From: an uncultured Planctomycetia bacterium
Lineage (GTDB): Bacteria; Omnitrophota; Gorgyraeia; Duberdicusellales; 4484-171
Reading direction: 5' to 3'
DNA length: 32,000 nt
Assembly: GCA_964536865.1 (NCBI GenBank)
Contig: CAZHYN010000004.1
Span: 30,001-62,000, forward strand
Under the pieces are notes generated by a model. The model ran no database searches. It saw only the letters and a program-made list of their open reading frames with translations, and was not told the origin of the DNA. The stretch's first letter is position 1, and every line of letters starts with the position of its first letter. Both the position numbers and the translations under genes were made by a program. Below, piece by piece: positions 11,789-14,090 of the stretch.

Positions 11789-12380
11789 GACTTTCTTTCT
11801 TTTTTTCTTCCTTCCTTCGTTAATTTTTGGATGCAGTTATCCAATTAAAAACTTAGATTCTCCAGGAGAGATAATAATATGTTTTGGAGATAGTATAACC
11901 CGGACAGAGGGAATTCCTTTAGAGAAAACCTACCCTGCAATTCTAAGTGAACTTTTACATAGAGAAGTTATAAATGCCGGTGTTTCTGGTGATACAACTG
12001 CCACTGCTCTAAGAAGATTAGAGAGAGATGTTTTAAGGAAGAATCCCTACTTGGTTATCGTGGAGTTAGGAGGCAATGATTTTTTAACTGGGATCTCTAA
12101 AGAAATCACTTTAAGGAACTTGGAAGAGATAATCGTTAAGATTCAAGAAGTGAAAGCTATAGTTGTTCTTTGCGATATAAGCTGTGGTTTCATCCTCTCA
12201 GGGTATAGGAAAGATTTTTACCAGTTGGCTAAGAAGACAGGTGCCATTTTCGTTTCTCAACTACTGGAGGGAATCTTAGATAATCCTTCTGCAAAACAGG
12301 ATTATATCCATCCCAATGTTGAAGGTCATAGACTTATCGCTCAAAAAATCTACCAAGTGATAAAGCCCTACCTCAAATAA
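11772..12380 (+). CDS. SGNH/GDSL-family hydrolase lipoprotein (TesA/arylesterase-like)
   Basis: Lipobox LIFGC. SGNH blocks FGDSIT, GVSGDTT, ELGGNDF and DYIHPNVEGH. Confidence 0.8.
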   Translation: MKIFPKTFFLFFFLPSLIFGCSYPIKNLDSPGEIIICFGDSITRTEGIPLEKTYPAILSELLHREVINAGVSGDTTATALRRLERDVLRKNPYLVIVELGGNDFLTGISKEITLRNLEEIIVKIQEVKAIVVLCDISCGFILSGYRKDFYQLAKKTGAIFVSQLLEGILDNPSAKQDYIHPNVEGHRLIAQKIYQVIKPYLK

Positions 12381-12455
12381 TTAAGGTAAATGTCGGACAG
12401 CAGACTTCTAATAGTTTCCCTTGATTTTAGTTATAAATCTCCAGTTCAAAGAAAA

Positions 12456-12497
12456 AGTTAATGAATGTGAGGTTAAACCATGCCGAGGGCGGGAGTC
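12456..12497 (-). repeat. duplicate of the tRNA-Leu 3' end (17 nt, positions 57-73) plus 25 nt of its 3' flank
   Basis: 42 nt match 12807-12848 with one mismatch (AGTTAATGAATGTGAG[G/A]TTAAACCATGCCGAGGGCGGGAGTC on the + strand). Confidence 0.9.
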
Positions 12498-12536
12498 AAG
12501 GCACTGAGTGCTTCGCACTATTTTAACCAGTGCCTT
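12498..12536. other. bipartite stem-loop module W abutting a tRNA-Leu 3' fragment
   Basis: Outer stem AAGGCACTG/CAGTGCCTT (9 bp). Inner hairpin AGTGC-TTC-GCACT next to the fragment-proximal strand. 8 unpaired nt (ATTTTAAC). Confidence 0.7.
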
Positions 12537-12619
12537 CATAGGGACTCTGTCCACTTGAGGCTCGGCTCATAGGAAAAAATCACAGAAAATAACTTCGCCT
12601 CGCTGTCACCCTGAAGTAT
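12533..12619 (-). repeat. about 87-nt segment homologous to 13398-13482, in inverted orientation
   Basis: Minus strand reads ATACTTCAGGGTGACAGCGAGGCG...GGACAGAGTCCCTATGAAGG. Shared blocks with the partner are ATACT, GGGTGACAGC, CAGAG and CTATGA. Confidence 0.6.
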
Positions 12620-12707
12620 TATCAAAGAAGATATTGTTAATAATTATTTTTAGAAGGTATTTAAAAAGAATAATGTAGACCCCAATTCTGACTTTAAAAA
12701 CAAAAAG

Positions 12708-12725
12708 TGCCGAGGGCGGGAGTCG
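12708..12725 (-). repeat. second isolated copy of the tRNA-Leu 3' end (positions 56-73)
   Basis: TGCCGAGGGCGGGAGTCG is identical to 12832-12849. On the minus strand it is followed by CTTTTTGTTTTT. Confidence 0.9.
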
Positions 12726-12726
12726 T

Positions 12727-12761
12727 AACAAATTCGCCAAAGGCGATTTCCCTTATTTGTT
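12727..12761. other. bipartite stem-loop module Y abutting a tRNA-Leu 3' fragment
   Basis: Outer stem AACAAAT/ATTTGTT (7 bp). Inner hairpin TCGCC-AAA-GGCGA next to the fragment-proximal strand. 8 unpaired nt (TTTCCCTT). Confidence 0.7.
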
Positions 12762-12831
12762 CCGACAATACTTTCGTTTCAGAGTTAACTTCTAGCTTAA
12801 AAAAGAAGTTAATGAATGTGAGATTAAACCA

Positions 12832-12915
12832 TGCCGAGGGCGGGAGTCGAACCCGCACAGAGTTACCTCTACCGGTTTTTGAGACCGACGCGTCTGCCAA
12901 TTCCGCCACCTCGGC
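12832..12915 (-). tRNA. tRNA-Leu (anticodon CAA), class II with long variable arm, no encoded CCA
   Basis: Minus strand: GCCGAGG TG GCGGAATTGGCAGACGC G TCGGT CTCAAAA ACCGG TAGAGGTAACTCTGT GCGGG TTCGACT CCCGC CCTCGGC A. All stems pair and the anticodon loop is CU-CAA-AA. Confidence 0.93.
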
Positions 12916-12990
12916 ATTTACTTTATATTATTATCCTACTCCTATTAGTCTTGCTCCTTAACAACTTCTCTCTTCTATTAACTACACGGG

Positions 12991-13033
12991 AACAACTAAA
13001 TTGAGCTTCGCTGTAATAACAGCGAAAGTTGTT
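12991..13033. other. bipartite stem-loop module X abutting the tRNA-Leu 5' fragment
   Basis: Outer stem AACAACT/AGTTGTT (7 bp). Inner hairpin TTCGCTGT-AATA-ACAGCGAA next to the fragment-proximal strand. 9 unpaired nt (AAATTGAGC). Confidence 0.7.
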
Positions 13034-13034
13034 A

Positions 13035-13081
13035 CCGCCACCTCGGCATTTACTTTATATTATTATCCTACTCCTATTAGT
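13035..13081 (-). repeat. duplicate of tRNA-Leu positions 1-13 plus 34 nt of its upstream flank
   Basis: 47 nt identical to 12903-12949 (CCGCCACCTCGGCATTTACTTTATATTATTATCCTACTCCTATTAGT on the + strand). Confidence 0.92.
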
Positions 13082-13200
13082 TCTGTCTATAGGATTTTTT
13101 CTATTAACTAATAATAACTACTAAATTAGTCTTTACCTCTTGACGGAGAAGACTATTTTTTCTTGGTCTCTATTTCTTTATTTGTTCCGGGAACTTTAAA

Positions 13201-13229
13201 ATCTTAGCATTAGCAAAATTCTTTGTCAA
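13201..13229 (-). promoter_or_regulatory. candidate sigma70 promoter facing the tRNA-Leu locus
   Basis: Minus strand: TTGACA (13229-13224), 17 nt, TAAGAT (13206-13201). Confidence 0.45.
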
Positions 13230-13258
13230 TTGACAATTTTTCTGTTAGATGATATATT
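13230..13258 (+). promoter_or_regulatory. near-consensus sigma70 promoter facing the tRNA-Ala array
   Basis: TTGACA (13230-13235), 17 nt, TATATT (13253-13258). The -35 is the right half of the palindrome TTGTCAATTGACAA. Confidence 0.6.
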
Positions 13259-13310
13259 TTAGTTTAAAGTTTCTCCCTAAAGTAGACAGAGCATATAGAT
13301 AGATGAGAGA

Positions 13311-13350
13311 GGCCGTAGTTTCCGCCAAAGGCGGACCCACTTATGAGGGG
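13311..13350 (+). repeat. degenerate tRNA-Ala 5' fragment (GGCCGTAGTT) followed by a 30-nt twin-hairpin element copy
   Basis: GGCCGTAGTT, then TCCGCCAAAGGCGGA, then CCCACTTATGAGGGG. The second hairpin has lost one base pair relative to the other copies. Confidence 0.75.
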
Positions 13351-13397
13351 CGATCCTTGATGGGCCATTTAAAAATAAATAAATTTCTTCTTTGGTC

Positions 13398-13482
13398 ATA
13401 CTCTAGGGGTGACAGCAAGCCGTGTTTAACTACCTCGGATTTACTTATAGGCTTGCGTCAGAGGGGCAGAGCCCCTATGAGG
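13398..13482 (+). repeat. about 85-nt segment homologous to 12533-12619 (inverted partner)
   Basis: ATACTCTAGGGGTGACAGCAAGCCG...GGCTTGCGTCAGAGGGGCAGAGCCCCTATGAGG. It contains stem GCAAGCC/GGCTTGC and hairpin GGGGC-AGA-GCCCC. Confidence 0.6.
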
Positions 13483-13495
13483 AGCGTAAGCGACA

Positions 13496-13547
13496 GGGCC
13501 GTAGTTTCCGCCAAAGGCGGACCCGCTTATGAGCGGGCAGCAGGGAG
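13496..13547 (+). pseudogene. truncated tRNA-Ala 5' fragment (positions 2-22) with the 31-nt twin-hairpin insert between nt 12 and 13
   Basis: GGGCCGTAGTT[TCCGCCAAAGGCGGACCCGCTTATGAGCGGG]CAGCAGGGAG. Identity to the tRNA stops after G22. Confidence 0.85.
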
Positions 13548-13548
13548 T

Positions 13549-13594
13549 AAGTTGTCTGCAACGTTAAGTTGCAGTATTCTTAAATATACAACTT
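13549..13594. other. bipartite stem-loop module S1 abutting the tRNA-Ala 5' fragment
   Basis: Outer stem AAGTTGT/ACAACTT (7 bp). Inner hairpin CTGCAAC-GTTAA-GTTGCAG next to the fragment-proximal strand. 13 unpaired nt. Confidence 0.7.
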
Positions 13595-13658
13595 CCTCCA
13601 TTGTTTATGATGTTAAAGATAGGCTGTCTCTTTAAAATAGAAGCTAAAGAAAAGTGAT

Positions 13659-13734
13659 GGGGCCGTAGTTCAGCAGGGAGAACGCTACGCTGGCAGCGTA
13701 GAGGTCAGGGGTTCAAATCCCCTCGGCTCCACCA
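13659..13734 (+). tRNA. tRNA-Ala (anticodon GGC), intact, CCA encoded
   Basis: GGGGCCG TA GTTC AGCAGGGA GAAC G CTACG CTGGCAG CGTAG AGGTC AGGGG TTCAAAT CCCCT CGGCTCC A CCA. The G3:U70 alanine identity pair is present. Confidence 0.95.
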
Positions 13735-13819
13735 GTTAGATTGTTAAATTCTCATTTTTAGGTGATATAAATGTTTTTATTAATAGATGGTAATTTTTAA
13801 GGTTTTCCAGTAAAATTGC

Positions 13820-13872
13820 GGGGCCGTAGTTTCCGCCAAAGGCGGACCCGCTTATGAGCGGGCAGCAGGGAG
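13820..13872 (+). pseudogene. second truncated tRNA-Ala 5' fragment (positions 1-22) with the 31-nt insert between nt 12 and 13
   Basis: GGGGCCGTAGTT[31-nt insert 13832-13862]CAGCAGGGAG. It is a copy of 13496-13547 offset by 325 bp. Confidence 0.85.
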
Positions 13873-13873
13873 T

Positions 13874-13919
13874 AAGTTGTCTGCAACGTTAAGTTGCAGT
13901 ATTCTTAAATATACAACTT
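13874..13919. other. bipartite stem-loop module S2 (copy of S1)
   Basis: Identical to 13549-13594, offset by 325 bp. Confidence 0.7.
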
Positions 13920-13983
13920 CCTCCATTGTTTATGATGTTAAAGATAGGCTGTCTCTTTAAAATAGAAGCTAAAGAAAAGAGAT

Positions 13984-14090
13984 GGGGCCGTAGTTCAGCA
14001 GGGAGAACGCTACGCTGGCAGCGTAGAGGTCACGGGTTTCCGCCAGAGGCGGACCCGCCTTTAGGCGGGCAAATCCCGTCGGCTCCACCA
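13984..14090 (+). tRNA. tRNA-Ala (GGC) copy interrupted in the T-loop by a 31-nt insert (intron-bearing gene or recent pseudogene)
   Basis: It matches 13659-13734 at all positions except a compensatory T-stem pair (ACGGG/CCCGT) and the insert at 14039-14069 between T55 and C56. CCA is encoded. Confidence 0.7.
14039..14069 (+). repeat. 31-nt twin GC-hairpin element, T-loop copy
   Basis: TCCGCC-AGA-GGCGGA followed by CCCGCC-TTTA-GGCGGG. Same length and architecture as 13507-13537 and 13832-13862. Confidence 0.85.

Follow-up and report, generated by a model that had tools for sequence, protein, structure and literature searches.

In a 32-kb stretch of DNA from a Gram-negative bacterium (the window, our name for the whole stretch analyzed), two unrelated tRNA genes, for tRNA-Leu and tRNA-Ala, are accompanied by broken copies whose breakpoints coincide at cloverleaf positions 12-13 and 55-57. 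An earlier note on this DNA took the coincidence to suggest recognition of tRNA-gene structure or position rather than, or in addition to, a simple sequence word. We consider it probable that the coincidence arose mainly in another way: a mobile element of 30-31 nt flanked by TT, here called E, was retained in redundant copies of tRNA-Ala, and the tRNA-Leu breakpoints are separate junctions with other hairpin elements.

Under this explanation, E would be a very small, non-autonomous, GC-rich double-hairpin element that inserts precisely beside TT (TT| or |AA) and makes no target duplication. Such sites are few in tRNA genes: those that are conserved are T16T17 of the D loop and T54T55 of the T loop, and this tRNA-Ala has T11T12 in addition. 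As insertion into a needed tRNA gene would be harmful, E would be kept only in redundant copies, nearly all of them truncated a few to ~20 nt beyond E and lying beside an intact gene. The tRNA-Leu breakpoints would have a related but separate origin, as the ends of partial duplicates joined to hairpin elements that we term B1, B2, and K. Together, the TT/AA positions in both genes and the persistence of harmless fragments would account, in the main, for the agreement in numbering at 12-13 and 55-57. We infer that selection, and not the insertion mechanism, is responsible for the neighboring intact copy.

Sequence, fold, and distribution of the element

Two hairpins, TCCGCC-ARA-GGCGGA followed by CCCGC(C)-loop-(G)GCGGG, lie side by side in E; they occupy 30-31 nt and are terminal rather than subterminal. 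The 30-nt consensus is TCCGCCARAGGCGGACCCGCCTTTGGCGGG (TCCGCC-ARA-GGCGGA-CCCGCC-TTT-GGCGGG), and E*, another common form, is almost perfectly palindromic (TCCGCCARAGGCGGATCCGCCTCNGGCGGA). Stem changes among variants keep base pairing, and the single-stranded DNA is predicted to fold at -12.5 to -13.5 kcal/mol (z about -4 to -5 compared to shuffled sequences). Longer variants in three loci (L002, L015, and L065) have extra hairpins in the loop of hairpin 2. E also occurs nested in the loop of a palindromic repeat, as GGGCGGAGCT[E]AAAGCTCCGCCCCTACG or GAT(T/C)CCCGCTTT[E]CGCGGG(A/G)ATGAC; the loci with E nested in two other palindromic repeat families are L153, L159, L193, L213, and L229, and L101, L108, L115, L175, and L201.

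A 24-nt degenerate pattern matched at least 117 loci in GTDB species-representative genomes, and a slightly looser pattern matched at least 120 further loci in JGI metagenomes; in all, the analysis covered more than 250 copies of E. Loci from other assemblies that bear E or are related to it carry L-numbers (L001 etc.), and each was examined in a stretch of ~1-15 kb. By their record names, the hosts are mostly Patescibacteria of many classes, together with Omnitrophota, including a single-cell genome (L046); further hosts are named as Planctomycetota, Chloroflexota, Melainabacteria, Lentisphaerae, and Actinomycetota, and several metagenome-assembled genomes (MAGs) are labelled Proteobacteria. 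We found no match to E in IMG/VR viral contigs or GenBank phages, and only chance-level matches in PLSDB plasmids; a phage or plasmid origin was rejected on these results. Literature searches with DNA words of E and with the encoded peptides GGSASGG and AKGGSA gave nothing relevant, and topic searches on such elements returned known analogs only. E is apparently an undescribed and extremely small double-hairpin mobile element that crosses phyla. No linked transposase was found when 1434 open reading frames (ORFs) within 3 kb of E at the 117 loci were compared all against all: no family occurred at more than five loci, and the recurring families that were examined were housekeeping genes containing E.

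Precise insertion beside TT

Filled and empty sites differ by exactly E (30-31 nt), with no bases duplicated or lost. An empty tRNA-Ala fragment in L125 reads gtagtt|cagttgggag, compared to gtagtt[E]cag at the filled sites in L123, L118, L120, and the window. Likewise, the T loop of tRNA-Ala has E in the window but lacks it in L120 and L118 (97% and 88% identical to the window downstream, respectively), and four other loci (L109, L079, L180, and L003) have an E-bearing fragment beside an intact copy free of E.

The flanks of E follow a simple rule. T was present at position -2 in 107 of 120 copies and at -1 in 96 of 120. Compared to a background of 10%, a 5'TT or 3'AA flank was found for 106/126 canonical copies (84%) and for 105/126 copies of E*; among canonical copies, 71% had the 5'TT, 30% had the 3'AA, and 16% had neither. 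The rule holds alike in ORFs, intergenic DNA, and RNA genes. It extends to the breakpoints of the window, five of which, out of six, lie beside TT| or |AA (TT|CA, GG|AA, AG|AA, TT|CA, and TT|CG), against 9% expected per junction (p = 3e-5). At 77 sites, flanking stems that would close a loop at the insertion point showed no excess over TT controls (stems of at least 6 bp at 3.9% vs 3.3%; Mann-Whitney p = 0.75), and hairpin-loop targeting was rejected on this result.

As read from its sequence, E has zero stop codons in all six frames, and 57 of the 79 copies with enough flank lie within a long ORF (28 well inside it and 29 near one end). E is antisense to the ORF in 41 of these 57, a bias that may reflect selection on the encoded peptide. 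A single combination of orientation and phase, found in 33 of the 57, encodes PAKGGSASGG followed by Lys (p = 2e-12 compared to an expectation of 1/6); the peptide takes the form (P/S)AKGGSASGG and adds 10 residues. In-frame copies occur in RecG (L005, L022, and L088), RpoC (L100), GyrA (L112), and AlaRS (L019), proteins that were named from sequence motifs and not by a family search. The three RecG insertions share the site HG(S/R)M|K in records that name three Patescibacteria groups; E is identical among them and the flanking DNA has diverged, a pattern that points to lateral spread or to repeated insertion at a specific site. Many ORFs that are unrelated to one another have E straight after a candidate ATG start, at ATG|AAA (L004, L007, L035, L049, L059, L086, L163, L189, L198, L206, L231, and L245). 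The predicted N termini at these sites read M(P/S)AKGGSASGGK, several of the loci have a similar short upstream in-frame MNKNM, and gene callers may misplace the start there.

Insertions in tRNA and 5S rRNA genes of other genomes

Inspection of all loci gave ~18 independent tRNA-associated insertions of E. Two are at 12|13 (the window and L072, a Pirellulales tRNA-Arg with the same TAGTT|CA and D stem), six at 17|18 (L109, L079, L033, L107, and L180, and L081 with E reversed), two at 35|36 (L110 and L140), six at 55|56 (the window and L099; L029; L028, with two copies; L199; and L002 with E reversed), one at 56|57 (L010), and one at 62|63 (L095). At least 12 of the 18 thus fall at two junctions, and a uniform model was rejected (p about 2e-15). 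The clustering on which the earlier note relied therefore persists in a larger sample, in which insertions pile up in the D arm (12|13 and 17|18) and the T loop (55|56) and are not spread over the whole tRNA. Of the 252 public sites of E, 19 lie near tRNA genes, ~2.5 times the number expected (p = 4e-4).

The E-bearing sequences in these ~18 tRNA cases and in one 5S rRNA case are partial copies, and for most of them an intact gene of the same kind was found 13-300 nt away. The 5S case (L003, 2380-2700) is a 5' fragment with E at GAAGTT|AAGC and an intact 5S rRNA ~95 nt downstream. Copies of the 5' type retain the native upstream side and end 5-21 nt past E, and copies of the 3' type begin 4-10 nt ahead of E, with their native downstream side retained. 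Removal of E in silico at the 252 sites restored no tRNA of normal length and gave one chimeric 84-nt call (L109). In L028 (3300-3560), a tRNA is followed by two copies of a unit composed of ggtt, E, nt 56-76, and 27 nt. Local duplication accompanies E more widely: its 16-nt flanks recur within 400 nt at 10 of 83 E sites, compared to 3 of 410 TT controls (p = 2e-6). E marks redundant tRNA and 5S copies and inserts in frame in essential proteins.

The tRNA-Ala copies of the window

The intact tRNA-Ala(GGC) gene, copy 1, lies at 13659-13734 (+ strand) and has a T stem of AGGGG/CCCCT, unlike the allele in three related loci (L118, L120, and L121). Copy 2 is interrupted by E and otherwise complete (13984-14038 and 14070-14090, +; Rfam tRNA, 49.3 bits), with a 31-nt variant, TCCGCCAGAGGCGGACCCGCCTTTAGGCGGG, between T55 and C56 (14039-14069, +). 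Deletion of 14039-14069 in silico gives back the tRNA, with the junction after nt 55, and the predicted RNA fold of copy 2 keeps the cloverleaf and places E in a separate extension. Compared to the truncated copies at public sites, this complete copy is the exception and looks like a recent insertion. Its T stem, ACGGG/CCCGT, is that of L118, L120, and L121. An apparent compensatory T-stem change was considered as a sign of a functional copy 2 and rejected, since the C50-G64 pair of copy 2 also occurs in those three loci and it is the intact copy 1 that deviates.

Three 5' fragments of tRNA-Ala, starting at 13495, 13820, and 13311, are split between T12 and C13 by an insert of 31 nt; the inserts that the earlier note had placed at 12|13 and 55|56 of this tRNA are thus both present. 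The first fragment (13495-13547, +) consists of nt 1-12, E (13507-13537), and nt 13-22 and is followed by a 111-nt spacer, S (13548-13658, +), which begins with a terminator-like hairpin (13556-13574) and has homologs in L123 and L125. The second belongs to a duplication unit with the same contents (13820-13983, +; Ala nt 1-12, E at 13832-13862, nt 13-22, and S; repeat D1). The third (13311-13351, +) consists of nt 3-12 and a degenerate E (13321-13351) and lies, by synteny, at the original start of the gene. A 325-bp duplication, in which 13496-13713 matches 13821-14038 (99% identical over 218 nt), underlies two of the three D-arm insert copies; a unique 86-nt spacer joins the two 325-bp units. 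The three 12|13 inserts are copies of one old event that is common to L118, L120, and L123. The window has an additional tRNA-Ala breakpoint at 22|23, where the fragment meets S. The D loop of tRNA-Ala (13672-13679) reads AGCAGGGA in the window, AGCGGGGA in L120, AGTTGGGA in L118, L121, and L125, and AGCTGGGA in L123; those of the window and L120 are without TT|GG, the commonest target of E in other genomes.

Comparison with relatives orders some of these events. The simplest arrangement, in L121 (Nfo 73% identical), is one tRNA-Leu, a common promoter, one tRNA-Ala, and nfo, with neither fragments nor E. L125 has a tRNA-Ala 5' fragment (nt 1-22) with a homolog of S, then an intact gene, then a 3' fragment (nt 56-76) by nfo, both fragments being free of E, and L123, L118, and L120 have E at 12|13 within the 5' fragment. 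The E-free fragments of L125 show that fragments arose without E, which makes the insertion at 12|13 a secondary event in a piece that was dispensable. For both tRNA genes, the outermost fragments adjoin the original promoters and the intact genes lie farther off. L099 has the identical 31-nt variant at the same T55|C56 site, but the 5' half of its copy has decayed. The insert is absent from the closer L120 and L118. As L099 is only ~73% identical to the window in nfo-leuS, the site was either hit repeatedly or acquired its insert by lateral transfer.

The tRNA-Leu fragments and their hairpins

The intact tRNA-Leu(CAA) gene lies at 12831-12916 (- strand; ARAGORN; Rfam, 57.3 bits). A 5' fragment with nt 1-13 (13047-13035, -; a 47/47 identical repeat, D7) adjoins the native upstream region and promoter, as judged by synteny with L121, and is followed by a 100-nt duplicate of the tRNA-Leu upstream region. 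Two 3' fragments cover C56-A73 (12725-12708, -; repeat family D3) and G57-A73 (12497-12481, -; repeat families D3 and D5). A duplicate at 12425-12509, which contains the 57-73 fragment and its downstream flank, forms a direct repeat of 79.5% identity with 12777-12863. The break after nt 13 and the starts at nt 56 (12725) and nt 57 (12497) reported in the earlier note were found again; the hairpins at these junctions begin with GG or CG, which leaves the exact positions uncertain by up to 2 nt. The junction words are GG|AA (13|14), GTT|CG (55|56), and TC|GA (56|57).

Each broken end abuts a hairpin element. B2 (TAACAAC..GTTGTTCC; 12989-13034, -; predicted single-stranded fold -12.3 kcal/mol, z -6.5) adjoins nt 13 of the 5' fragment; B1 (TAACAAAT..ATTTGTTCC; 12726-12763, +; -7.9 kcal/mol, z -5.0), inverted relative to B2, adjoins nt 56; and K (AAGGCACTG..CAGTGCCTT; 12498-12536, +; -11.5 kcal/mol, z -5.7) adjoins nt 57. 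All three have a common fold with an outer stem of 7-9 bp, a directly stacked inner hairpin, and a bulge of 8-9 nt on the 3' side, and the set may be a second element family. B1 encloses a degenerate E-like hairpin, TCGCC-AAA-GGCGA (77% match to E; repeat D6). On the complementary strand, B1, B2, and K have the topology of an acceptor/T-arm minihelix. The tRNA-Leu breakpoints are junctions of partial gene duplicates with other hairpin elements and not insertions of E.

In L118, L120, and L124, a 13|14 junction likewise involves this hairpin family; the break is therefore not an independent data point. In L124 (2470-2880), three tandem 133-nt units (Leu nt 1-13, hairpin, ~70 nt) precede the intact gene, and the D loop shares an AACAG microhomology with the beginning of the hairpin. 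L120 has the whole nested tRNA-Leu arrangement but with a different tRNA-Leu allele, which its fragments match: the gene is 83.5% identical to that of the window and has a different acceptor stem, compared to 97% identity in the flanks. From these comparisons, the D-arm break of tRNA-Leu is evidently inherited or recurrent in this clade.

Why the breakpoints coincide

Both insertion sites in tRNA-Ala are the same word, GTT|CA, and the tRNA-Arg of L072, with TAGTT|CA, is also hit at 12|13. The T-loop sites of tRNA-Ala and tRNA-Leu have the near-universal GTTC in common, and the D-arm site of tRNA-Leu is the |AA of its D loop, one position from T11T12 of tRNA-Ala. Recognition of tRNA structure or position, as the earlier note proposed, thus holds up only in part: most of the signal is a sequence word, with the TT/AA flank at 84% everywhere and a negative loop test, and what is left in favor of structure is an excess of D-loop hits beyond that predicted from TT.

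This excess is among several observations that weigh against our preferred explanation. Compared to an expectation weighted by the TT content of 92 tRNA genes, the D-loop junction 17|18 is over-represented (6/18 events vs 9% expected, p = 0.003), and TT in the anticodon loop (0/18, p = 0.012) and at other sites (at most 1/18, p = 0.003) is under-represented. The D-loop residue may reflect the limits of the surviving fragments, which span the first ~13-38 nt or run from about nt 47-57 to the 3' end, or it may be a real structural component. Further, the tRNA-Leu break at 56|57 (TC|GA) departs from the flank rule, and the truncation of nearly all E-bearing copies within 4-21 nt of E together with local duplication of the flanks may reflect mechanistic coupling rather than selection. 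Finally, the near-identity of E across phyla is unexplained by the ordinary biology of miniature inverted-repeat transposable elements (MITEs).

Mechanism of movement

By analogy with known elements, the most likely mechanism, which we put forward tentatively, is that E moved as single-stranded hairpin DNA through a trans-acting HUH strand transferase of the IS200/IS605 TnpA or RAYT type. Precise insertion at a fixed dinucleotide, terminal hairpins, the lack of coding capacity, and the lack of a target duplication make E resemble miniature IS200/IS605 or RAYT elements. The flexible orientation of E fits an HUH mechanism poorly, and its occurrence in both orientations at the same tRNA site (L081 and L002) is a misfit with a strict 5' target word of the IS200/IS605 kind. 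Moreover, no candidate for a mobilizing enzyme was found in the window or as a recurrent neighbor at the 117 loci. Copy-choice or template switching during replication is an alternative mechanism. Templated insertion during break repair is another, which would also explain the flank duplications and the truncation distance of 4-21 nt, and a third is homologous recombination through conserved flanks after DNA uptake (the host genome encodes ComEC and a ComEA-like protein). Near-invariance across phyla is the feature that these mechanisms explain least.

A bolder combination of these ideas is conceivable, although we doubt it: E would be an ultra-small cross-phylum mobile DNA whose insertion is coupled to a partial duplication of the target that backs up the interrupted gene, a conserved enzyme (an HUH strand transferase or a templated-insertion repair system) would carry out the reaction, and the D- and T-loop preference would be part of the mechanism.

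Alternative explanations

Somewhat less likely again is that the partial tRNA copies are attachment-site (att) duplications left by integrase-mediated integration of elements since deleted to 40-300 nt, with E and the other hairpins being later passengers or parts of those elements. Identity blocks of T-loop-targeting integrases are reportedly of the kind seen in those 3' fragments whose first nucleotide lies in the T loop or T stem (Leu 56-73 and 57-73, Ala 56-76 in L125, and those of L028, L029, L010, and L199). This explanation would also accommodate the displaced fragments next to native flanks, the different T-arm allele of the intact gene (window copy 1, L029, and L199), and the position of the tRNA locus at a synteny breakpoint relative to L120 (window 12380-13300 vs L120 1-940), to the right of which the two are 97% identical and to the left of which there is no homology. 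However, integrase is absent from the window and most loci, and the supposed elements are uniformly tiny, with spacers of 13-130 nt in many phyla, which would not be expected from random deletion. In addition, 5' fragments of 12-22 nt by the native promoter are atypical of an integrase, and 5S rRNA (L003) and ORFs (L116 and L019) contain the same architecture.

The view that the insertion machinery recognizes tRNA structure or position, through a cloverleaf extruded from single-stranded DNA or through the tRNA transcript, is the reading of the earlier note and seems to us improbable. It would explain why hits in the D and T loops exceed the prediction from TT frequency, why all three loops are struck (17|18, 35|36, and 55|56), why both orientations of E occur at one tRNA site, why E is enriched near tRNA genes, and why E nests in the loops of other palindromic repeats. 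Nevertheless, flanking stems showed no excess at the 77 sites, and most copies of E lie in ORFs or plain intergenic DNA under the same TT/AA rule. Moreover, the 12|13 site falls within the D stem, and the word TAGTT|CA specifies it in two tRNAs that are unrelated. The limited extent of the surviving fragments could alone keep the hits within the D and T loops.

An assembly or binning artefact, in which collapsed strain variants produced a false tandem duplication or a contaminant was spliced in, is highly improbable. Contigs of relatives do end inside this region (L118, L119, L122, and L123, and likewise L099), a sign that the repeat-rich tRNA region fragments short-read assemblies and troubles assemblers. 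However, L118, L119, L120, and L123 were assembled independently with the same architecture and with lineage-specific substitutions, E is present in assemblies from many studies and assemblers and in the single-cell genome L046, its variants preserve the stems, RecG has it in frame at the same site in several MAGs, and the spacer between the 325-bp units is unique.

Least credible of all are tRNA introns, spliced at an archaeal bulge-helix-bulge (BHB) motif or otherwise, with the fragments as split tRNA genes: the inserts occupy non-canonical positions of a kind known from archaeal introns, a 4-bp helix (CCGC/GCGG) is possible between the insert ends, and the predicted cloverleaf of copy 2 is otherwise intact, but we rejected this reading on host taxonomy (an Omnitrophota bacterium, Gram-negative by its LptFG, ComEC, and Nfo homologs), on the missing BHB motif (the 5' side permits a bulge, but on the 3' side 6 nt are unpaired, with no 3-nt bulge and no outer helix), and on the presence of E in frame in ORFs, in 5S rRNA, and in intergenic DNA, and E-bearing copies stand beside intact ones and are decaying (L099).

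Host and setting of the locus

The host of the window has a G+C content of ~35%. Its endonuclease IV (Nfo) is 99% identical to a protein from a Candidatus Omnitrophota MAG, and the source-named matches among the 120 best for this protein are nearly all from Omnitrophota. The window encodes LptF/G, ComEC, LeuRS, alanine racemase, and a trehalose gene cluster, and no integrase or transposase was found among the genes of its 32 kb. ARAGORN and Rfam recognized two tRNA genes, tRNA-Leu(CAA) and copy 1 of tRNA-Ala(GGC), and Rfam returned tRNAs only, with no family for E, spacer S, the hairpins, or a segment that we call X.

The two divergent tRNA genes flank a pair of back-to-back sigma-70-like promoters that is common to both (13201-13258, both strands; TTGACA-17-TATATT on the + strand and TTGACA-17-TAAGAT on the - strand), and the ttgtcaattgacaa motif of this pair is kept in L118, L120, L121, L124, and L125. 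The stretch at 12536-12657 is an inverted, diverged copy of segment X, 68.5% identical to 13365-13480 (inverted repeats I1 and I6; 41-124 nt). This inverted repeat brackets the tRNA-Leu block and the common promoter and could mark an inversion, represent element ends, or encode a small RNA. We read the interval from 12.4 to 14.1 kb as a decayed hot spot that surrounds these two divergent tRNA genes.

Significance

If E is essentially the same across phyla, it would rank with the smallest mobile DNAs known and would be a rare tracer of DNA exchange between uncultivated phyla. Essential proteins (RecG, RpoC, GyrA, and AlaRS) and many N termini gain a 10-residue peptide from E, which also leaves truncated copies of tRNA and 5S rRNA. 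It offers a concrete explanation, without integrases, for tRNA gene fragments in small genomes. In practice, assemblies break at tRNA loci because of E, and gene callers and tRNA finders can be misled by it. Coupling of insertion to duplication, if true, would be a new way for a genome to tolerate a parasite of essential genes.

Comparison with known systems

A close mechanistic parallel is with the miniature IS200/IS605 elements (PATEs), moved by Y1 HUH TnpA, which have hairpins at both ends and insert precisely without duplication, as E does; their insertion 3' of a short target word and the movement of non-autonomous copies in trans would also apply to E, and its predicted strong folding as single-stranded DNA fits this pattern. 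Unlike PATEs, E has only 30 nt, which leaves no room for guide sequences, its target is just TT, 16% of copies are without a TT/AA flank, both orientations occur at one site, and no TnpA was linked or identified. REP/BIME sequences and REPINs, mobilized by RAYT, are likewise short, GC-rich, multi-copy, non-coding palindromes that nest with other repeats. However, REPs are extragenic, have a GTAG or CGTC head, and are species-specific, whereas E begins with TCCGCC beside a TT flank, lies in a long ORF at 57 of 79 sites, and is near-identical across phyla.

In its location E resembles the Rickettsia palindromic elements (RPEs), stop-free palindromes found in frame in protein genes, including essential ones, and in RNA genes; RPEs are 100-150 bp long and confined to Rickettsia, compared to 30 nt, 10 residues, and many phyla for E. 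The small dispersed repeats (SDRs) of heterocystous cyanobacteria are mobile hairpins of ~21-27 nt, nested and non-coding. They differ from E in sequence and are lineage-restricted, and they are not known to be associated with truncated tRNA copies. Yeast mitochondrial GC clusters and chytrid mitochondrial double-hairpin elements are GC-rich hairpin micro-elements of AT-rich genomes that also enter coding and rRNA genes. They have the double-hairpin architecture in common with E and differ in that they are organellar, have other sequences, and in some cases make target duplications.

Integrase att sites at tRNA genes resemble this locus in the displaced 3' fragment that starts in the T loop or T stem and lies by the native downstream flank (Leu 56-73 and 57-73; Ala 56-76 in L125), and differ in that the loci described here have no integrase or element body (spacers of 13-300 nt), include 5' fragments, and extend to 5S rRNA and ORFs. 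Compared to MITEs moved by DDE cut-and-paste, sites of E are without a fixed-length target-site duplication. E belongs with the REP, RPE, SDR, or GC-cluster-like micro-elements, and the chance that it moves by a new mechanism is appreciable.

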